Below are positions 50,772 to 59,986 of a stretch of 64,000 bases of DNA, one piece after another; the first letter of the stretch is position 1, and every line of letters starts with the position of its first letter. The DNA lies in assembly GCA_037310415.1 (NCBI GenBank), contig CP147780.1, positions 352,001 to 416,000 of the forward strand. Reading direction: 5' to 3'. Source of the DNA: Candidatus Atabeyarchaeum deiterrae (GTDB taxonomy: Archaea > Asgardarchaeota > Atabeyarchaeia > Atabeyarchaeales > Atabeyarchaeaceae). The position numbers were made by a program, and so were the translations under genes. Under the pieces are notes generated by a model, which was not told the origin of the DNA, searched no databases, and was given only the letters and a program-made list of their open reading frames with translations.

Positions 50772-50820
50772 AGTTAGGGTTAATTTGTCACTTCTCAGTC
50801 TAAGAACGGTGAGAACAAGA

Positions 50821-51030
50821 ATGATGATTCCAGTCAGATGCTTCACTTGTGGAAAACCCATAGGAGACAAGTGGGAAGAGTTTATACGTAGAACCAGACA
50901 AGGAGAAGAGCCCAAGAGGGTCCTCGATGAATTAGGAGTGAAGAGATATTGCTGTAGAAGAATGCTGTTGTCTCAGGTCGATCTATTGGAGGACATAATG
51001 ATCTTTACGCCGGGTCAAGAGGAGTCATAG
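50821..51030 (+). CDS. rpoN: RNA polymerase subunit Rpo10 (N)
   Basis: [18 protein letters not shown]. Confidence 0.95.
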
Positions 51031-51068
51031 CCTAAATTAGGAATAAAAGGACACTATAGTTCAATCGT

Positions 51069-51704
51069 ATGTGTGGAGAGAAAGCTATGTCCATGGAGAT
51101 TAAAAGCGAAGAGTTATTGATACCCTTAGACGACTATCTCGCAGCGGGAATGCACATCGGAACTCAAGTTCGAACTGAAAGCATGTCGCCTTTTGTGTAC
51201 CGGGTTCGTTCAGACGGACTCTATGTTCTTGACATCAGAAAAGCCGATGAACGCATACGGGTCGCTGGAAAACTAATAGCGAGATACGAACCATCTAAAG
51301 TCATCGCGGCCTCCTGCAGACAGTATGGTCAGAGACCTGTTCAGAAATTCAGTGAGTTAGCAAGAGCAAAGCCCGTGATCGGAAGAATAGTACCAGGAAC
51401 ACTTACAAATCCTTTTCTTGATACCTACATGGAGCCAGACATCATTATTATCACTGATCCTAGGGCTGACGTTCAAGCACTAGAGGAAGCACTTGTTATT
51501 GGAATTCCAGTCATTGCGCTATGTGATACCGACAATGTCGCGACAAACATAGACTTAGTAATACCGACGAACAATAAAGGAAGAAGAGCCCTCGCCCTGG
51601 TATACTCGTTACTTGCTCGCCAAGTTCTCAGGGAAAGAGGAGAGCTTCCGATGGGCAAGGAGATGGGAGTTACGGTAGACGAATTCGAATCTAAACAGGT
51701 TTAG
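51069..51704 (+). CDS. rps2: 30S ribosomal protein uS2
   Basis: YLAAG.HIGT, PGTLTNP, IPTNNKGR. Confidence 0.96.
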   Translation: MCGEKAMSMEIKSEELLIPLDDYLAAGMHIGTQVRTESMSPFVYRVRSDGLYVLDIRKADERIRVAGKLIARYEPSKVIAASCRQYGQRPVQKFSELARAKPVIGRIVPGTLTNPFLDTYMEPDIIIITDPRADVQALEEALVIGIPVIALCDTDNVATNIDLVIPTNNKGRRALALVYSLLARQVLRERGELPMGKEMGVTVDEFESKQV

Positions 51705-51883
51705 TCGACGCTTATTGAGCTCATAGCCCGAGAAAGCATAATGTCGAGGCAAACCCAGTGCGCTAATTTCTTTTATTATCTTGCGCATTTTTACAGAAAG
51801 AGATATCTCCATGATGGAGTGGGAGTTTGGACTATTTAGGAGGGTAATACCGCATCCAACACCATCCGAGTCACAGGAAAACT

Positions 51884-52306
51884 CTGGAGAGTGGCGTTAT
51901 TGCCACAGCGCCTGGCAAATTGATAATCGCGGGAGAACACGGAGTTGTCTACGGTAAACCAGCCTTGGCAGTGGCGATAGACAGGAGAAGCTATGTTAGA
52001 GTAGATGAGAGAAAAGACAAGAAGATAGTCATAGAGTCTGCCTCTCTGCATGTAAGAGGCGAATACGAAGACGGAAGATTCCAGACGCTCCTGGGAAGAG
52101 AGGCAACCAAAAAGATACTGGATCCAATTCATTTTGCCATCACAGAAGTATTGGAGAATGCAACTCAAAAAAGAGGGATAGATCTAAGAATAGACTCTCA
52201 GATCCCTGTTGGAGCAGGACTTGGATCGTCGGCTTCAACGATTGTTGCCACGGTAGCTGGAACCGCAAGACTCTTGGAAGTCAAGTTATCTCCCAAGGAG
52301 AGATAG
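51884..52306 (+). pseudogene. mvk: Truncated resident mevalonate kinase, N-terminal half
   Basis: ATAPGKLIIAGEHGVVYG and GHMP motif PVGAGLGSSA, then a stop at about residue 140; start probably CTG 51884. Confidence 0.8.
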
Positions 52307-52340
52307 GTTGACTACAATATTAGTATGGAGGAAAACAGAA

Positions 52341-53279
52341 TTGGGAAAAGGATATGGCTACGGTAAGACTATCCTTTTCGGGGAACACTTTGTGGTCTAT
52401 GGTTTGCCAGCGTTGGCATCAGCGCTTGGTGCAAAAACCACAGCCATAATCGATAGGATCCCACGCAAAGGGTATGAGTTGATTGACAACCGTCCCGAGG
52501 TTCCAGGATACAAGAAAGATAAGTACGAGGAACAACAGATTTCCATCAAAAACGTTCTCAAATTTATGGGAGTCGATACCGAAAAGCAGGGTCTGCGTAT
52601 CACTCTTGGTGGGGATCTAATCTGCTCAAGTGGAGTGGGGGCTTCAGCTGCTAGCTGTGTTGCGATAGCGCGAGCAATAACTGATGAATTCAAGCTCAAT
52701 TGGAATGATACAAGGATAAACGATGCGGCCTATGAAGGGGAGAAGGGGTATCATGGAACCCCCAGCGGAATTGATAATACTGCTTCAACATTTGGGGGAT
52801 TGGTGTATTTTGTCAAGAACATGAAGGGCGGTCCAAACACAATGGACACCACCAAATTGAAGAACGTCGTGGAACTTGTTATTGGCAGCTCCGGGATCAC
52901 CTCGGATACCAAAGAGGTGGTTGATGCTGTTAAAAAGTTGAAAGACAAGGATCCCAAATGGTTTGACGATATTATCGGGGAATATTCAAAATTGGTCGCT
53001 CAGGGGCGACAGGCTCTGGAGAATTTCGACTTGCCGCTAGTTGGAAAGTTAATGGACAAAAACCACACACTACTTCAGAAGATCACAGTATCGAATGAGG
53101 TTCTTGACTCAATGGTTGTGATCTCCAGAAAAGCAGGCGCTTTGGGAGCGAAAGTAACTGGAACAGGCCGTGGCGGAAACATGATTGCTTTAACACCCAG
53201 CGTGAAGCTACGAGACAAGGTTGCCAGCGCACTTCAAGCTGCTGGGTATGAAGTTTGGAAAACAACTATTGGCGCTTAG
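52341..53279 (+). CDS. mvk: Mevalonate kinase (second, complete, divergent copy)
   Basis: GKTILFGEHFVVYG, SSGVGASAA, HGTPSGIDN, GAKVTGTGRGG; GGAGG SD before TTG. Confidence 0.9.
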   Translation: MGKGYGYGKTILFGEHFVVYGLPALASALGAKTTAIIDRIPRKGYELIDNRPEVPGYKKDKYEEQQISIKNVLKFMGVDTEKQGLRITLGGDLICSSGVGASAASCVAIARAITDEFKLNWNDTRINDAAYEGEKGYHGTPSGIDNTASTFGGLVYFVKNMKGGPNTMDTTKLKNVVELVIGSSGITSDTKEVVDAVKKLKDKDPKWFDDIIGEYSKLVAQGRQALENFDLPLVGKLMDKNHTLLQKITVSNEVLDSMVVISRKAGALGAKVTGTGRGGNMIALTPSVKLRDKVASALQAAGYEVWKTTIGA

Positions 53280-53306
53280 CATGTGACATGGTGGTGGAAG
53301 TGAGAA

Positions 53307-54617
53307 ATGGATTTTCGGCAATATGTTGACAAACTAGAGAGAGAGGGAAACCTCTATAGAATAAGGAAAGTAGTTTCAGGTGATGTGGAGGCAGCTGCTG
53401 TTTTGAAGGCGGCTGAGCCGACACCTGTGCTGTTTGAGAGTATTAAGGAAAACAAAGGATTTCGGGTAGCTGGAAACGTCTTTTGTACAAAAGAAAGCAT
53501 CGCCAAGTACTTCGGAATCACAACTGCTGACCTAATCCCAAAACTCACAAAGGCGATTGACCAACGCAGCCAACCAGAGGAGACCAAGAACGCTCCGTGT
53601 CAAGAAGTCGATATGGGGACTGTCGACCTCAACAAGTTGCCCATTCTAATGCACAATAAAGCAGATGGAGGAAGGTACATCTCTTCGGCAGTGGTTATTA
53701 CAAGAGATCCTGAGTATGGACAGAACTTGGACTTCCACCGAGCTATGCAGATCTCCAACAATAAGATGAGTACTAGGATTATTCAGGGCAGAGATTTTTA
53801 CAAATTCCTTGAGCGAAATGAAGAAGTTGAGGCGGCATTCTGCGTTGGCAATACTCCTAATGTCCTGGTCGCTGCTGCGACCTCTGTTCAGACTGGAATT
53901 GATGAACTCTACATCGCAAACGCCCTTGAGAAAATGCGAGTTACAAAAGCGAAATCGGTGAATCTCATGATTCCCGCTGATTGCGAGGTAGTGCTCGAGG
54001 GTAGGGTTTTTATGAAAGAAAGAGCCGCTGAGGGGCCATTCGTCGACTTAACCGAGACCTTCGATATTATTAGGCAGGAGCCCGTTTTCGAAGTCCGTAA
54101 GATCACTCATAGGAGAGACCCTATATGGCAAGCTCTTCTCCCTGGTGCCCTAGAGCATAAATTACTTATGGGAATGCCTCGAGAGCCAACGATTTTCAAG
54201 AAGGTTACAGAGTCGGGTGTCAGATGCCTTGATGTCAATGTGAATCCTGGAGGATGTTCATGGCTCCATGCAATAGTCAAGATCGACAAGAAAAACGAAG
54301 ACGATGGGAAGAAAGCAATTCTTGCAGCCTTCGCTGGTCATTCGAGCTGTAAACATGTATTCGTAGTCGATAAGGACATTAACATCTATGATCCACTCCA
54401 AGTGGAGTGGGCGATGGCCACAAGGTTCCAAGCAGACCGGGGACTAATAAACAAAGGGAAGGAACCGGGATCCAGTCTGGATCCGAGTGCCGATCCGCAG
54501 ACCAAAATGACCAACAAGGTAGGGTTTGACCTGACAGCGCCACTAGTAACGAAGGGAAAGAACTTCGCTCGCGTTGAATTCCCCAAAGTTGATTTGAAAA
54601 AGTATATCGAGGAATGA
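53307..54617 (+). CDS. UbiD-family prFMN decarboxylase, probable anhydromevalonate phosphate decarboxylase
   Basis: DGGRYI, EGPFVD, VEWAMATRFQ, GSSLDPS; mevalonate context. Confidence 0.85.
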   Translation: MDFRQYVDKLEREGNLYRIRKVVSGDVEAAAVLKAAEPTPVLFESIKENKGFRVAGNVFCTKESIAKYFGITTADLIPKLTKAIDQRSQPEETKNAPCQEVDMGTVDLNKLPILMHNKADGGRYISSAVVITRDPEYGQNLDFHRAMQISNNKMSTRIIQGRDFYKFLERNEEVEAAFCVGNTPNVLVAAATSVQTGIDELYIANALEKMRVTKAKSVNLMIPADCEVVLEGRVFMKERAAEGPFVDLTETFDIIRQEPVFEVRKITHRRDPIWQALLPGALEHKLLMGMPREPTIFKKVTESGVRCLDVNVNPGGCSWLHAIVKIDKKNEDDGKKAILAAFAGHSSCKHVFVVDKDINIYDPLQVEWAMATRFQADRGLINKGKEPGSSLDPSADPQTKMTNKVGFDLTAPLVTKGKNFARVEFPKVDLKKYIEE

Positions 54618-54620
54618 TCT

Positions 54621-55796
54621 ATGAAACTAACTACTGAAGAGAAGAAGATGGCTGATGGCGAGTACGGCTATGCCACTCAGAAAGCGATGGAGATACTAGT
54701 TACCTTGGGGGAGATCTATGAAGCCGAACGGATGATTCCCGTTAGTTCAGTCCAAATCTCTGGTGTAAGTTATGCAAATCTTGAAGAAGCGGGGCTTGAG
54801 TGGCTGGCTGAGATGGCTAAAGATGGGAAGGTTCGTGTACTTACTACGTTGAATCCAGCAGGTATGGATCTTGAAGATTGGAAGAAACTTGGGATAAGTG
54901 AGGATTTCGCCAGAAATCAACAGCGTGTAATCGATGCGTTCTTCCGAATGGGGGTTATCACAACATGTACATGTACCCCTTATCTTGTCGGAAACGTACC
55001 CCACTTTGGTGAACACATATCATGGGGAGAGAGCAGCGCAATCTGCTATGCTAACTCGGTACTGGGAGCCCGAACCAACCGTGAGGGGGGGCCCAGTGCC
55101 CTTGGTGCAGCATTGACTGGAAGAACACCGGAATATGGTTTTCATCTGGACAACAAGAGACAACCACAAGTGAAAGCCCAAGTACAGGCAAAACTGAATG
55201 GGACATACGAATTTGGCGCTTTAGGAAAGGTTCTGGGCGAAAAGTTGGGGGAAAAGATTAGTTATATCACAGGAATCCCAAGCGCATCAGTCGAGGAACT
55301 CAAATCCCTTTGTGCTTCCTATGCTACCTATGGGGGAGTTGCCCTCTTCCACATTGAGGGGATCACTCCCGATAGAGTCAGCCAAATTCCTGTTGAAACA
55401 GTTACGGTTACGGATGAGGACATTAAAGCTGCGATCAATGCTTTGAATCAAGAAACATCTATCGATTTTGTCAGTATTGGTTGCCCACACGCGACATTGG
55501 CTGAACTCGAATACATTGCCAACAAATTGAAAGGAAAACAAGTGAAGAAAGAGGTCTGGATAACGACTGCACGCCCTACGAAGCAAATGGCAGACCGGAT
55601 GGGTTTCACCAAAATGATCGAAGGAGCTGGAGCCAAGGTTGCTGCAGATACTTGCTGTGTCGTGGCTCCCATAAAAGGGAGATTTGTTGGATTAGCCACC
55701 GACTCAGCTAAGGGCTGCTATTACGGATCAGGGAAAAACAGGTTCAAGGTAAAATTGATGTCCATCGATGAATGCATTGAGGAGGCGCTTAGGTAG
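54621..55796 (+). CDS. Aconitase X catalytic subunit, probable phosphomevalonate dehydratase large subunit
   Basis: SGVSY, TTLNP, CTCTPY, ESSA..YANSV.GARTNREG, GCPH, DTC. Confidence 0.88.
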   Translation: MKLTTEEKKMADGEYGYATQKAMEILVTLGEIYEAERMIPVSSVQISGVSYANLEEAGLEWLAEMAKDGKVRVLTTLNPAGMDLEDWKKLGISEDFARNQQRVIDAFFRMGVITTCTCTPYLVGNVPHFGEHISWGESSAICYANSVLGARTNREGGPSALGAALTGRTPEYGFHLDNKRQPQVKAQVQAKLNGTYEFGALGKVLGEKLGEKISYITGIPSASVEELKSLCASYATYGGVALFHIEGITPDRVSQIPVETVTVTDEDIKAAINALNQETSIDFVSIGCPHATLAELEYIANKLKGKQVKKEVWITTARPTKQMADRMGFTKMIEGAGAKVAADTCCVVAPIKGRFVGLATDSAKGCYYGSGKNRFKVKLMSIDECIEEALR

Positions 55797-56186
55797 ATGC
55801 AGCTAAAAGGAAGAAAAATCTACAGAGGCAAAGCAGAAGGGGAAGCACTCGTAACGAAACAAAGCATCTCATTCTACGGTGGTGTTGATCCGTCAACTGG
55901 AACGATTGTGGAACGGGGACATGAGCTAGAGGGAAAATCGATCACGGGGAAGATCCTTGTATTCCCGACGGGAAAGGGATCGACTGTTGGCTCCTATGTA
56001 CTTTATCAAATGTCTAAGAATGGCAAAGGACCGAAAGGACTCGTCCTAAAAGAGTGTGAGGCAATTGTGGCAGTCGGATGCATCATTGGCGGAATCCCAT
56101 GCATTGACCACATAGACATCGAGAAGCTAACCACGGGTAAACACCTCATCCTAGATGCGAACAAATCTGCTTTGGAGTTCAAGTGA
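55797..56186 (+). CDS. Aconitase X swivel subunit (DUF126), probable phosphomevalonate dehydratase small subunit
   Basis: SFYGGVDP.TG, GKGSTVGS. Confidence 0.88.
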   Translation: MQLKGRKIYRGKAEGEALVTKQSISFYGGVDPSTGTIVERGHELEGKSITGKILVFPTGKGSTVGSYVLYQMSKNGKGPKGLVLKECEAIVAVGCIIGGIPCIDHIDIEKLTTGKHLILDANKSALEFK

Positions 56187-56302
56187 AAACCCTCAGATAA
56201 CCTACAGTTCCGAGGAATCCAAAAGTAGGAAAGAAATTCGCACCGCTGACCAATGGGCATCAATGCCTGTACGGGACTAACACGTAACCTTTCAGCTTTG
56301 TT

Positions 56303-56480
56303 CGAGACACCGATTTGAATAAGTCAACTACCACCTATTGAAGTAGGTGGTTTGTGCTCGTGGTGAGGAGCATTGTTGCTAACTAGTGCTTGCTCACCGT
56401 CATGGCACCGGACGGGCTGGTTGACAGCAGCCTCACTCTGGGAAAACTGGACGGGATAAGGTGTTTGAGCACGTTGTTTG
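56303..56480 (-). ncRNA. Putative TnpB omegaRNA (reRNA) overlapping the tnpB 3' end; guide predicted from the flank, TTATTCAAATCGGTGTCTCG
   Basis: Known IS200/IS605 architecture plus the terminal hairpin; 5' boundary uncertain. Confidence 0.5.
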
Positions 56481-57680
56481 GTGGTCCGCTCCCAGAGCAG
56501 TTTAGCGATGTTCACCGACGCGTTTCTATCCGCGTTGGCGGCGAACCCGCAACCGCATTTGAACCGGCTTCCGTTCCTAACGCCTCGTGCACCGCACTTC
56601 GAGCATACCTGCGACGTGTTCCGTGGACTGACCAGGCTAACCTCAACGCCTTCCTGCCAAGCTACGCTCTGAATCGCCTGCCTAAACATCGAGTAGGGCA
56701 TCCGCTTCACCTTCCGGTTCGACTTTCGACTGAGCTTCGTGCTCTTCGACCCCTTGAGGTCTTCTACGGCGATAGTGCCGCCGTGTTGTTTGGCGAGGAC
56801 GACTATCCTATGCGCTTCTTGGTAGCACCTCGTCTTGGCGAAGTTGTGCTCATATCCTCTGAGTTCTCCGAGGACGCGCCGCGCCCTTCTAGAACCCGTA
56901 GAGGCGTGAGCCTGAAGCTTGGAGCGACGGACGCCAAGGTCGCGCTTAACCCGCCACACATCGCGCCCAAAGTACAGCTGCCGTCCAGCTCTCCCGGCGT
57001 TGAAGACCGTCACGGCAGCGAGGGTGCCGACCCCGACATCCACGCCGACAGCCACACGACTTGTCGTGGGTTCGGCGACCGCGAATGTTCGCTTAAGCGT
57101 GACCCTGGTCAACTGCGAGTCGAGCAGTTTAAACTCGGTGAATGTCCAGCCGCCTTGGAGCAGCTGCCCGAGTCTTCGCCACGCGCCATCTTTGGCGACG
57201 GGTAGACCGAGCCTTCCATTGAGCGTCGCCACACTCAGAACCGGATTGCAGCGCTTTGTCTGGGTAAGCGAGGCGCTTCGTGGAACGTTGTAGGAGACTG
57301 GCAGGCGCCTGAACCCAGAGATCTTGTGCTTCCGCTTCGCCCAGACCTCGCGTCGAGCTGCGCATACGAGTTGGGCTGGAAGCTCGGACTTCTCGCACAT
57401 TTTCGTGTAGGTGAGGTGGTGGAGCTGGTTTTCCGTGTGTGGCTTCTCGGACTTGAGAGTGGAGAGGACTTCGTTGGCGACGCCAACGTATTCGGAAAAT
57501 AGAGAGAAGAGTTTATTCTGCTTCACCCTCGTCAAGGGGAGTAGGTTCAACTCTACGGACCTGATAACCTCTCTCCACACACTCAAACACAAAGCATAAT
57601 GTTGCCGCTAGTGTCTTAAGAACTCCCAGAAGGAAGGAGCAATTCCTTCACCGTTTGAAAACGGTGGTCTCCTTGCTCCA
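56323..57680 (-). mobile_element. Non-autonomous IS200/IS605-family (IS1341-like, tnpB-only) element
   Basis: Right end hairpin CCACCTA-CTTCAA-TAGGTGG followed by TAGTTGAC; left-end hairpin GGAGCAA...CACCGTTT-GA-AAACGGTG...TTGCTCC at ~57636-57679; visibly more GC-rich than the flanks; no tnpA. Confidence 0.82.
56324..57592 (-). CDS. tnpB: TnpB RNA-guided endonuclease
   Basis: RuvC-I VGVDVG, RuvC-II IAVEDL, zinc finger CSKC...CGC, RuvC-III ADRNAS.NI. Confidence 0.9.
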   Translation of the reverse strand: MCLSVWREVIRSVELNLLPLTRVKQNKLFSLFSEYVGVANEVLSTLKSEKPHTENQLHHLTYTKMCEKSELPAQLVCAARREVWAKRKHKISGFRRLPVSYNVPRSASLTQTKRCNPVLSVATLNGRLGLPVAKDGAWRRLGQLLQGGWTFTEFKLLDSQLTRVTLKRTFAVAEPTTSRVAVGVDVGVGTLAAVTVFNAGRAGRQLYFGRDVWRVKRDLGVRRSKLQAHASTGSRRARRVLGELRGYEHNFAKTRCYQEAHRIVVLAKQHGGTIAVEDLKGSKSTKLSRKSNRKVKRMPYSMFRQAIQSVAWQEGVEVSLVSPRNTSQVCSKCGARGVRNGSRFKCGCGFAANADRNASVNIAKLLWERTTKQRAQTPYPVQFSQSEAAVNQPVRCHDGEQALVSNNAPHHEHKPPTSIGGS

Positions 57681-57688
57681 ACGACCAT

Positions 57689-57772
57689 GATGTTGGGAGA
57701 GAAATCGAAAAGGCTGGAGGAACAGTGATACAAACTAGCAAGACTGAAGGAGGGGTAGCGACAGAAGGCTAG
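57689..57772 (+). pseudogene. Probable C-terminal remnant of the resident mevalonate kinase
   Basis: DVGREIEKAGGTVIQTSKTEGGVATEG* resembles the archaeal MVK C-terminus (IE.AGG......T..GV); same strand as the N-terminal fragment. Confidence 0.6.
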
Positions 57773-57788
57773 ACCGGAATGCCGCAGA

Positions 57789-58643
57789 TCAAGGTAAAAT
57801 CGAAGTACCCACTTTCTCGCCTCTTAGAGCCTTTAAGATGTTACCTTCTTGGAGAGCATTAATCACCATTGATGGGATCCCCAGCCTCGCGATAGACATT
57901 AGCTCTTTGAACTTTCTGCCCATGCCCCCGTCGACATCCAGACTAGAACTCTCCCTCGGACTGAACTTATCTTTCTCAGACAGGGTTATTGTCTCGACGA
58001 GCTTAGCTCTGGAATTCTTCTTCGGGTCATCCGTAAAAATCCCTTGAACATCTGTACCTGCAATTACGAGATCCACGTCCTTCAGCTCTCTTGCGCACAG
58101 GTAAAGTATGGTATCACCTGAAAGGACGCTCGCATCTCCATTTTGATCAAAAACAATGTCCCCGAAGAGAACAGGCGTGTAATGTTCAACTAATCGCTCT
58201 AATCTGGGACAGTCAAACAATGCATCAATACCAACCCACGGTCGTTCTGTGTCCCTGCTAGTGACAGTAAACAATGAATGAGGAGGAATGCTGACCGCCG
58301 GAATACCACTGCTGAGCATCTCATTCATGAAAATGGTGTTCTCTAGCTGAACAGAGTACAGAGTCAAAGGCCATCCGACTAGTCTCTGTTCGAGAGGATC
58401 TACTTCAAGGAAACTACTGACTGGGAAATGACCAAATATCCCTGCTCCATGGACTACGATCAAATATCCAAGGTTAGGAAGGCAAGTTTTTATTTCTTGG
58501 CAAATTCTCCTAACTACTTCAGTATTCATAAATCTGGTCGCATTATCCCATATTCCCTTTGGGCTGAGCGGGAAATTCGTGGAGCCCTTGTACGTAACTA
58601 TGCTACCGCCCAGTTTCAGTAGAACATTCTTTCTCTTCGCCAT
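57789..58643 (-). CDS. ipk: Isopentenyl phosphate kinase
   Basis: LLKLGGSIVTYK, VHGAG.FGH, PVLFGD, LSGD, DV.GGM..K. Confidence 0.88.
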   Translation of the reverse strand: MAKRKNVLLKLGGSIVTYKGSTNFPLSPKGIWDNATRFMNTEVVRRICQEIKTCLPNLGYLIVVHGAGIFGHFPVSSFLEVDPLEQRLVGWPLTLYSVQLENTIFMNEMLSSGIPAVSIPPHSLFTVTSRDTERPWVGIDALFDCPRLERLVEHYTPVLFGDIVFDQNGDASVLSGDTILYLCARELKDVDLVIAGTDVQGIFTDDPKKNSRAKLVETITLSEKDKFSPRESSSLDVDGGMGRKFKELMSIARLGIPSMVINALQEGNILKALRGEKVGTSILP

Positions 58644-58813
58644 AGCCTGGGGCACCAGCCTCAACATTAATAATGAAATCGAAGATTAGATTCTTCAAGA
58701 GGCAAAACTACAATATAATACTACTGCGTTCTCGTTTCCAACTAGGGTTGATCTGAGATTAACTGATGTTCTGATCCTCGCTTAGAGATTGGATTTCCTG
58801 GAGGTAGAAAAAG

Positions 58814-59986
58814 TTGAGAAAAAGTGCCGCAAAACCGAGGGAAAAAGAACAGATACCTCCGAACCGCCTCACAAGTGAGAGGAAACTCGACCATATTCGT
58901 ATATGTTTAACCAAAGATGTGCAAGCGTTGCAGAAGAAAACCGGATTCCAGGATGTTGAACTGATTCACAATGCCATTCCCGAAATAGATATGAGTGAAG
59001 TGAAGACGGAGACAGAACTATTCGATAGGAAACTGGCTTTTCCCTTGATTATTGCTGGAATGACTGGCGGACACCCAACAACCAAGAGAATCAATGAGAC
59101 TCTGGCAAGGGTTGCACAGGAAACAGGGATTGGCATGGGTGTGGGAAGCCAGAGAGCAGCCATTGAGGACGCTTCGCTCGTGGAGACCTTTTCAGTAGTC
59201 CGAAAAGTCGCTCCAGACATACTTGTCATAGGTAACTTAGGCGCTCCTCAGCTTTCCAGAGGATATGGAGTCAGAGAAGCCAAGAAAGCTGTCGAGATGA
59301 TAGATGCTGACGCATTAGCGATCCATCTCAATCCACTTCAGGAAGCAGTTCAACCAGAAGGGGAAACAAGCACCAAGCAGACATTCAAGAAGATTGCTGA
59401 TATCGCCGACCAACTTGAGGTCCCCGTCATAACAAAAGAAACAGGATGTGGAATCGCTTACGAACAAGCTCTCAGATTCGCTGAAATCAACGTAAAAGGT
59501 GTTGACGTCGGCGGAGCTGGCGGAACTAGTTGGCCTGCAGTGGAAGCCTACCGACAGCTTGGCAAAGGAACTAATAATTGTGACGCTATCCCTCTAGGTT
59601 TCACTTTCAGAGATTGGGGAATCTCGACTGCCGCCAGCATCGTTGAAGTCTCGACTGTTGAGGGGTTAAAGACAATAGCGACTGGCGGAGTAAGAAATGG
59701 AATAGATGTGGCAAAAGCGATCGCGTTAGGGGCAGATGTTGCAGGAGTAGCACTACCTTTTCTGAAGCCCGCATACATGGGTGATGAAGAGACTCTCAGA
59801 GCTATGGTTCTCAGAATAGCAAAAGAGCTGAGGACTGTAATGTACTTGACAGAGTCGCGGAATACAGATGCCCTAGGAGAAGCAAATCTGGTGCTGGGAG
59901 GAAAACTGTCGGAGTGGCTCACGATGCGAGGATTCGAACCGAGGCAGTATGCTAAACGGAGAAGGTGGATACAAAGAATGAAGTGA
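58814..59986 (+). CDS. fni: Type 2 isopentenyl-diphosphate isomerase
   Basis: RK.DHI, MTGG, GSQRAA, HLNPLQEAVQPEG, KETG.G, GGTSW. Confidence 0.95.
   Translation: MRKSAAKPREKEQIPPNRLTSERKLDHIRICLTKDVQALQKKTGFQDVELIHNAIPEIDMSEVKTETELFDRKLAFPLIIAGMTGGHPTTKRINETLARVAQETGIGMGVGSQRAAIEDASLVETFSVVRKVAPDILVIGNLGAPQLSRGYGVREAKKAVEMIDADALAIHLNPLQEAVQPEGETSTKQTFKKIADIADQLEVPVITKETGCGIAYEQALRFAEINVKGVDVGGAGGTSWPAVEAYRQLGKGTNNCDAIPLGFTFRDWGISTAASIVEVSTVEGLKTIATGGVRNGIDVAKAIALGADVAGVALPFLKPAYMGDEETLRAMVLRIAKELRTVMYLTESRNTDALGEANLVLGGKLSEWLTMRGFEPRQYAKRRRWIQRMK

Follow-up and report, generated by a model that had tools for sequence, protein, structure and literature searches.

Probable recent replacement of a resident mevalonate kinase gene by a mobile type-B mevalonate operon in an Asgard archaeon

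In the genome of the Asgard archaeon Atabeyarchaeia-2 (Candidatus Atabeyarchaeum deiterrae; complete, 2,756,679 bp; hereafter G000), a stretch of 64,000 nucleotides (G000:352001-416000; the window, to whose first letter all positions refer unless a genome or locus is named) carries an operon of mevalonate-pathway genes that lies between two fragments of a second and dissimilar mevalonate kinase (MVK) gene, mvkA, along with an insertion sequence (IS) in which tnpB is the only gene. For comparison, we used Atabeyarchaeia-1 (CP147779.1, 'SRVP18_Atabeyarchaeia-1'; 2,808,651 bp; G001), the sister genome G002, and the Joint Genome Institute (JGI) contigs L184, L185, and L186, which with G000 make six Atabey lineages in total; the loci of G002 and of the JGI contigs were reached via the 90% cluster of the AcnX protein. 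An original prediction, made from the letters of this DNA, had described the locus as a resident kinase gene split in place by an incoming mevalonate cassette, and all of the elements that it listed were present in our analysis of open reading frames, domains, and profiles. These features and their immediate neighbors are as follows.

51069-51704, plus strand: ribosomal protein S2, the vertically inherited upstream flank (74-80% DNA identity to Atabey lineages; synonymous divergence, dS, at least 1.8 or saturated)
51705-51883, plus strand: native S2-mvkA intergenic region, 179 bp, with a TATA-like TTTTATTA at 51771-51778
51884-52298, plus strand: N-terminal (N) stub of mvkA, a type-A mevalonate kinase, codons ~1-138; the frame runs over 51884-52303, with TAG at 52304-52306
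52299-56322, plus strand: young, apparently imported block, made up of a 9-nt leader (AGAGATAGG), mvkB, ubiD, acnX large, acnX small, and a conserved non-coding tail
TTG 52308 or TTG 52341 to 53279, plus strand: mvkB (PF00288 and PF08544)
53307-54617, plus strand: ubiD (PF20695, PF01977, and PF20696)
54621-55796, plus strand: acnX large subunit (PF04412, 503 bits, full length)
55797-56186, plus strand: acnX small subunit (PF01989, 119 bits)
56187-56322, plus strand: conserved non-coding tail, 136 nt, common to G002, L184, and L185
56323-57684, minus strand: tnpB-only IS200/IS605-type element, with tnpB at 56324-57592 (422 aa)
57685-57772, plus strand: C-terminal (C) stub of mvkA, the last ~28 codons (NDVGREIEKAGGTVIQTSKTEGGVATEG and stop), convergent with IPK
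57789-58667, minus strand: IPK (AA_kinase domain), vertically inherited downstream flank
58814-59986, plus strand: type-2 IDI (IDI2; FMN_dh domain), vertically inherited downstream flank

Of these features, the N stub has the character of the front part of a type-A kinase. It scores 47.6 bits with GHMP_kinases_N (PF00288) and 156.8 bits (E 1e-46; positions 3-137) with a type-A MVK profile of length 327, which was built from 11 Asgard relatives and 120 database matches, and it carries both motif I (APGK..GEH) and motif II (PVGAGLGSSAS); no ATG, GTG, or TTG start lies upstream of its APGK motif. Nothing of mvkA at profile positions ~138-295 occurs in the window, so that the gene has no whole GHMP C-terminal domain (the one with the GGGGC motif) in a single open frame with a start codon, and mvkA reads as a broken gene rather than a functional member of the type-A MVK family. 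Here, the earlier estimate that about the middle half of the gene is gone can be put as ~160 of ~325 codons. The identity of the N stub is 29% to mvkB and 36-43% to the MVKs of Baldrarchaeia, Odinarchaeia, and other Asgards, and those archaea with such an MVK carry the gene order S9-RpoN-S2-mvk-IPK, S2 being the universal archaeal neighbor of mvk. Moreover, in an MVK tree of 141 shared columns, types A and B split with 100/100 support and the N stub is placed within type A. No further copy of the stub was found in the G000 genome, nor did any of the other GHMP kinases encoded there qualify as a second MVK or a decarboxylase, these resembling galactokinase, pantoate kinase, and beta-RFAP synthase when judged by motifs rather than by a profile search.

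At the opposite end of the locus, the C stub matches profile positions 296-324 of 327 with 8.0 bits (E 0.21 in the six-frame 64-kb window and 0.005 within the interval), where it ranks third among the window matches, behind only the two MVK genes, and it ends at a stop codon that is 16 nt from the convergent IPK. A counterpart of 45 codons is found directly before the convergent IPK of Atabeyarchaeia-1, which reads TGGRCMAALCPDARTRNVAAKIESSGGKAILTNKMDQGVTI and aligns to positions 284-323 (29 bits, E 2e-8), and a weaker remnant occupies the matching place in L184, having the derived GR-M.A.C features of the one in G001. The remnants in G001 and L184 thus argue that in the Atabey family a type-A mvk formerly lay between S2 and IPK, and that the two fragments in the window are the ends of this one old mvkA. 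The C remnant had been proposed before as MVK-like, which agrees with these results, though its start at 57689 needs correction to 57685 on account of where the IS ends. Two further candidates were considered in this region. In G001, the 45-nt extra remnant (TGGRCMAAL...) was tried as a leftover of the left end of the IS and rejected, given that it falls on the GGGGC motif in the profile alignment (29 bits) and that its derived features recur in L184. For the tail at 56187-56322, a comparison of FAPLTNG with GAKLTGAG had hinted at another mvkA relic, and frame-stitched translations gave no profile support outside 296-324, which leaves this as possible at best.

Within the block, mvkB is full-length, has both GHMP domains, and gives 232 bits (positions 9-315) on the profile built from type A. 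Its possible start at TTG 52308 begins 1 nt past the N-stub stop codon and is not conserved, being CTG in G001, whose own GTG is GTA in G000. On the other hand, every one of the six lineages has the TTG at 52341, behind a GGAGG (52327-52331), and translation probably begins there. The cassette ubiD is matched by the UbiD N-terminal, Rift-related, and C-terminal domains, and in a genome-wide search it and mvkB were the only intact UbiD and MVK in G000. The type of mvkB is that of the Hod, Heimdall, Hermod, Thor, and Loki archaea, in which mvk-ubiD-acnXL-acnXS is the standard operon, and in Hermodarchaeia these genes are also found directly 3' of S2. We regard the cassette, on its gene types and order, as an ordinary type-B Asgard operon and not an exotic module. 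In gene content, G000 is the same as the archaeal (Aeropyrum-type) mevalonate pathway, the dominant archaeal route (PMC11052028), which comprises MVK, the AcnX-L/S phosphomevalonate dehydratase, the UbiD anhydromevalonate-phosphate decarboxylase with prenyl-flavin mononucleotide from UbiX, and IPK. Thus, MVK, both AcnX subunits, and a three-domain UbiD are in the cassette, with IPK and IDI2 adjacent and UbiX remote. The absence of ubiX, as noted in the original prediction, applies to the window, while a gene for a UbiX-like flavoprotein (157 bits) lies far away, at G000:2682153-2682668. The predicted roles of the cassette enzymes in the dehydration of mevalonate 5-phosphate (M5P) and the decarboxylation of trans-anhydromevalonate 5-phosphate (tAHMP) are assigned from the protein families, the setting in the operon, and the pathway as published (PMC11052028). 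As for other Atabey lineages, ubiX is situated inside the operon, between mvkB and ubiD, in G002 (L174, G002:C117), L184 (7132-7683), and L185 (7132-7683), and it is not at this position in G000, G001, and L186.

All five of the other lineages carry the operon at the S2-IPK site without an N stub, with G002, L184, L185, and L186 sharing the order S2 - conserved intergenic region - mvkB - (ubiX) - ubiD - acnXL - acnXS - IPK (minus strand) - IDI2. When 52299-56192 was compared with G001, the DNA identity was 96.8% over 3894 bp and uniform to both edges, with the flanking DNA at 67-80%. In fact, when G000 was compared genome-wide with the first 1.2 Mb of G001, with 887 kb aligned and a modal identity of 65-75%, the block is both the longest and the most identical segment, and its identity exceeds that of the rRNA operon (88-93%). 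The cassette genes have 87-98% DNA identity to those of the five other lineages, and their dS is 0.03-0.14 to G001 and 0.36-0.53 to L184/L185, though at least 1.5 (saturated) in every flanking gene. Across the Atabey lineages, DNA identity is 64-80% for RpoD, L18e, L13, S9, S2, IPK, IDI2, L7Ae, and IF2, with IPK and IDI2 at 64-70% and saturated in dS. The trees differ as well. In that of the flanking proteins, G002 goes with L184/L185 (99%) and all deep lineages are ~79% identical, whereas the cassette tree, which is shallower and in conflict with it, places G000 with G001 (99%) and G002 with L186 (82%) at 88-97% identity. Moreover, the G002 operon is a mosaic, its ubiD being 89% and its mvkB and acnX 97% identical, and 3% separates the G000 allele from all other known copies. 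From the low cassette dS and the conflict between trees, it follows that the common ancestor of the operon is much younger than that of the species and that several moves between species took place, the most recent being that between the G000 and G001 lineages. The block hence combines outlying identity and dS, sharp borders, and tree conflict, all of which are marks of recent transfer.

Two observations bear on identity and spread more generally. Besides the rRNA operon, just two other segments in the comparison with the first 1.2 Mb of G001 are at least 90% identical, G000:1683545-1685623 (92.5% over 2 kb) and 835082-835902 (90% over 0.8 kb), and these may represent more cases of recent exchange, or else mobile DNA. 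Separately, a wastewater metagenome (run X7; compared over 52155-56760) holds many contigs that are 90-100% identical to the operon and none that reach 90% to the flanks, and in these contigs the operon follows the conserved intergenic region, without the stub junction. Wastewater, oil, and soil runs contain ~0.3 of the sampled words, and together with the operon contigs in wastewater this suggests that the operon allele family is geographically widespread.

Regarding the borders, the left junction is non-homologous. An S2-mvkB intergenic region of 105-127 bp is conserved in the five other lineages, and G000 retains only its last 9 nt, the leader of the block. The 179 bp found instead between S2 and the stub in G000 (51705-51883) has no similarity to the conserved region of G001, G002, L184, L185, and L186, and the stop codon of the N stub (TAG 52304-52306) falls within the incoming block. 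The intergenic region of the others cannot be obtained from the arrangement in G000 by deletion. Moreover, since G000 is without the operon's own upstream region, it is probably the old mvkA upstream region, with its TTTTATTA, that drives transcription of the cassette. On the right side, the identity to G002 (~90% in non-coding DNA) extends over the whole tail and drops sharply after 56322, and the seeming edge at 56192 is due to a rearrangement in G001. The cassette genes had earlier been described as tightly packed; the edges at 52299 and 56192 are in part artefacts of the comparison with Atabeyarchaeia-1, and the young block continues beyond its last gene to 56322. Between the two junctions, the recipient mvkA DNA is deleted.

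These borders bear on a different history, in which mvkA was split once in the ancestor of the Atabeyarchaeia, the high identity arose through later operon-for-operon exchange, and the N stub was kept open because it acts as a promoter or leader or couples translation to mvkB. Such an ancient single replacement would agree with the operon being at the S2-IPK site in six of six lineages, with the C stubs of G000, G001, and (weakly) L184, and with a non-coding tail after acnXS that several lineages have in common. The closeness of the N-stub stop codon to a possible TTG start and the missing upstream region in G000 are in keeping with it, too. Nonetheless, we consider it unlikely. Coupling could keep a frame open, yet the stub holds the full type-A signal. 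In a substitution-only simulation of neutral drift, 0.75 or more substitutions per site, which is half of the minimum between-species dS, left the stub with ~2 bits (against the 156.8 bits observed) and with fewer than 1% open frames, and at 0.045-0.09 substitutions per site the frame survived in 29-55% of the trials. No neutral decay is detectable in the N stub, and when set against the simulation this argues that the stub belonged to a gene under selection until roughly when the block came in. Furthermore, the intergenic region shared by the other lineages is not derivable from G000 by deletion, and the high identity reaches both edges of the block, which is unexpected for internal homologous crossovers.

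Additional evidence comes from outside of the window, where a genome-wide tblastn search with the cassette proteins revealed a second ubiD-acnX set at G000:886525-888704 (locus L027, 919-3098). The genes within this interval are as follows.

ubiD2, pseudogene: N-terminal piece with a stop codon, large internal deletion, frameshift, and a 106-codon C terminus (UbiD_C, 65 bits)
acnX2-large: open, 403 aa (AcnX, 462 bits)
acnX2-small: frameshift near the start and a run-on 3' end

Of these, acnX2-large is 44-48% identical to the AcnX of Baldr and Odin archaea, which have no other, versus 40% to the cassette copy, and in those archaea ubiD-acnXL-acnXS forms a separate operon, alongside S2-mvkA-IPK. 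The flanks of this second module are syntenic in both G002 and G001. At this site, G002 keeps only a 169-codon C-terminal relic of ubiD2 (75% protein and 73% DNA identity to that of G000), and nothing remains in G001. As the DNA identity of the relics equals that of selected flanking genes and is unlike that of long-dead DNA, selection acted on ubiD2 during most of the period after speciation. This speaks for late and separate inactivation, and hence also against an ancient single replacement.

The second module likewise helps in judging whether the direction might be the reverse, with the operon resident in Atabeyarchaeia-2 and the foreign part being 600 bp of upstream DNA and the 5' piece of mvkA, which would have come from an unsampled S2-mvkA organism and replaced the operon's upstream region. 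Such an origin from a working gene would explain why the stub is fresh, and fits its being found only in G000 and having no close relative; S2 could have acted as the left homology arm. However, ubiD2-acnX2, a module associated with type A, at a syntenic site in G000 and G002 and the C stubs beside IPK in G000 and G001 would then need a separate explanation, as would the 97% operon identity to G001, for which another recent exchange must be assumed, and the S2 of G000 is not anomalous, with its identity (74-80%) like that of the other flanks. Altogether, we deem this direction very improbable.

That the junctions could be products of assembly, with reads of co-occurring Atabey species joined at 52299 and 56192, has to be weighed as well, for several of these species with operons that are 90-99% identical share habitats, a classic source of chimeric joins. 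However, one independent Logan contig (run X1) spans 50800-55768 with 0 differences and a second spans 55781-58900 with three differences, and though run X1 may be the source sample, it is still an independent assembly. In a run from another study, a 417-bp contig (51912-52328) has 0 differences and extends 30 nt beyond the junction. Moreover, the 3% by which the G000 allele differs from every other known copy argues against a chimera, and for the published genome, curation and validation by Nanopore and PacBio reads are reported (PMC11291895). We thus see next to no chance of a chimera. Neither the mevalonate genes nor TnpB are mentioned in that publication (PMC11291895) or in the companion paper on mobile elements.

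The element between the tail and the C stub is 1362 bp long and has a tnpB of 1269 bp as the sole gene between its ends, with no tnpA, and its GC content is ~60% compared with 46% in the surroundings. The TnpB protein matches Cas12f1-like_TNB (65 bits; zinc ribbon), with OrfB_IS605 (18 bits) below the cut-off. Its ends were set at 56323 (GTCAACTACC...) and 57684 by full copies elsewhere in G002 (82%) and G001 (73%), and subterminal hairpins with compensatory changes between copies are found at both. An empty site occurs in G002, in which GATTTGAATAA is followed directly by ATGAAG (GAATAA, then ATGAAG), while in G000 the same GATTTGAATAA is followed by the IS and then ATGATG, with no target duplication. 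Here, a TTCAT-like motif and 14 of 14 adjacent bases (18 of 20 overall; TTATTCAAATCGGT...) in G002 are identical to the right-end flank in G000. The clean empty site implies that the tail and the C stub were joined before the IS was inserted, and the element is best read as a simple later insertion between GAATAA and ATGAT that made neither the junction nor the deletion. At the matching left flank of G001, a degraded copy consists of the right-end hairpin plus 77 bp (L018 15116-15192), and its 88% identity fits neutral divergence at the dS of the block. This copy is split in the loop of the right-end hairpin by a 2,043-bp element (L018 13056-15192), which is flanked by a 7-bp duplication (TATTGAA) and carries an N6_N4_Mtase DNA methylase gene and an S-adenosylmethionine (SAM) methyltransferase gene. 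There are also miniature derivatives of 200-380 bp in G000 (311759-312135, 2365361-2365426, and 2005724-2005761; L021, L022, and L024) that have both end hairpins and no tnpB, and from copy to copy the left-end hairpin differs by compensatory base changes.

The original prediction had suggested that TnpB cleavage or an IS-mediated deletion possibly aided the replacement; in a fuller form, cleavage of the IS-free allele by the RNA-guided TnpB nuclease, or a deletion by the IS, would have created or driven it. In favor of this, the IS in G000 is located exactly at the boundary of the young block and the old C stub, a degraded copy sits at the matching left flank in G001, TnpB-type genes are found in or beside the operon in four of the six lineages, and the empty site in G002 retains the motif and adjacent bases of the G000 right flank. 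However, at that site no IS accompanies the young block in G002, L184, and L185 and the join of tail and stub predates the insertion, the illegitimate left junction is 4 kb away from the IS, and the element is without tnpA, the single Y1 transposase match in the genome lying elsewhere. We therefore find such assistance quite improbable, and the clean empty site in G002 leads us to discard that part of the earlier proposal. As to the TnpB-type genes, these take three positions, after mvkB as in G002 (L019 7752-8470, G002:C270), after acnXL as in L186 (10186-11081), and after the tail, and their notable clustering at the operon looks as if it may exceed a chance scatter of ISs. A related idea is that TnpB-type elements drive or speed the spread of the operon, with RNA-guided cleavage of IS-free alleles and repair from an IS-bearing allele leading to co-conversion of the operon, which we hold to be quite improbable. 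If true, a core metabolic operon would sweep across species as the passenger of a selfish nuclease, and the process would resemble that of homing endonucleases co-converting flanking exons.

Taking the above together, we think it likely that a type-B operon has been replacing an ancestral dispersed pathway, spreading among Atabey species by recombination, and that its arrival recently broke mvkA in G000. In the ancestral state, there would have been a dispersed set of the Baldr/Odin kind, with mvkA between S2 and IPK and a ubiD-acnX module at a second locus. The type-B operon (mvkB-[ubiX]-ubiD-acnXL-acnXS, with its own upstream region and 3' tail) may have entered the family after the main lineages split and then moved between species by recombination at the S2-IPK locus. 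For G000, the donor of the block would have been close to Atabeyarchaeia-1. On the left, the incoming DNA presumably lacked homology, or did not use it, and an illegitimate join would have linked codon 138 of mvkA to a point 9 nt upstream of the mvkB region of the donor. On the right, it would have replaced mvkA up to ~codon 296, with ~160 codons deleted and the N and C stubs remaining. The operon would thereafter have supplied the sole intact MVK and UbiD decarboxylase, with the old and redundant ubiD2-acnX2 module left to decay, and the tnpB-only IS would have been inserted later between the block tail and the C stub. The arrangement of the genes, the young age of the block, the orthologous stubs, the decaying module at the second locus, and the empty site of the IS are observations, and from them we infer which way the transfer went, in what order things happened, how the ends were joined, and that the old promoter was captured. 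The earlier notion of a snapshot of xenologous replacement is supported in part, namely in that an incoming, complementing operon split the resident mvk in place and did so recently, and the decaying second module strengthens it, but the cassette is an ordinary S2-linked Asgard operon, whose immediate source would be another species of Atabeyarchaeia.

Several points weigh against this recent replacement. The C stub of G000 is not significant when taken alone, and that of G001 begins ~12 codons earlier, though in both genomes the IS lies at the same left flank, so that an extra small deletion or separate histories are needed. In the MVK tree, the N stub groups with Bathyarchaeia-like and unnamed sequences and not clearly with Baldr/Odin. 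No intact close ortholog of mvkA was found among 5.8 billion proteins, the best intact relative being 50% identical, and therefore the state of the Atabeyarchaeia-2 lineage before the replacement is inferred rather than seen. The right-hand crossover is placed only approximately (~mvkA codon 296), not to the nucleotide, and a candidate microhomology at the left junction (CAAG/AGAG) cannot be confirmed with the original mvkA sequence lost. Finally, acnX2-large is still open and may have retained function.

Three known systems invite comparison. Displacement of genes in situ by xenologous (non-orthologous) ones within conserved neighborhoods is reportedly a concept of Omelchenko, Koonin and colleagues from 2003. 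Similarly, the type-B mvk takes the position of the type-A mvk beside S2 and IPK with the neighborhood kept. However, G000 differs from such displacement in general in that both ends of the displaced gene remain and the physical event is visible, and in that the incomer is a whole operon, which makes a distant module redundant and has passed between several sister species. Homology-facilitated illegitimate recombination, said to have been described for natural transformation by de Vries and Wackernagel in 2002, would be alike in having one homologous side (in G000, presumably the mvkA 3' end/IPK) and another joined without homology, possibly through microhomology, with the intervening recipient DNA deleted. 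It differs in that the anchor and crossover in G000 are not placed to the base and the mvkA junction sequence is lost. As for tnpB-only elements of the IS200/IS605 family and the homing of TnpB, reportedly treated by Karvelis in 2021 and Meers in 2023, the G000 element is similar in its single tnpB with a TNB domain, subterminal hairpins, no target duplication, insertion beside a short conserved motif, empty site in a relative, and miniature derivatives within the genome. It differs in that the G000 element has no tnpA and shows no evidence of having acted in the replacement.

The locus matters in that the synthesis of isoprenoid precursors is essential for archaeal membranes, and core pathways of this kind are usually pictured as vertically inherited. 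Here, a complete and long-read-validated Asgard genome would preserve the intermediate of a pathway swap, in which the kinase is cut and the old decarboxylase and dehydratase are decaying. Sister species would represent later stages of the same replacement, making this a dated and stepwise example of displacement in situ. An operon can, it seems, cross between species whose genomes share only ~70% average amino acid identity, the value for the two complete Atabeyarchaeia genomes (PMC11291895). There is also reason for caution, as trees of Asgard mevalonate genes, which are used in arguments about eukaryote origin, can reflect very recent exchange.

With respect to the downstream flank, the strand of IPK in the Atabey lineages is reversed relative to other Asgards, in which S2, mvk, and IPK are co-oriented, and the Atabey IPK is 26-39% identical to the IPKs of other Asgards.

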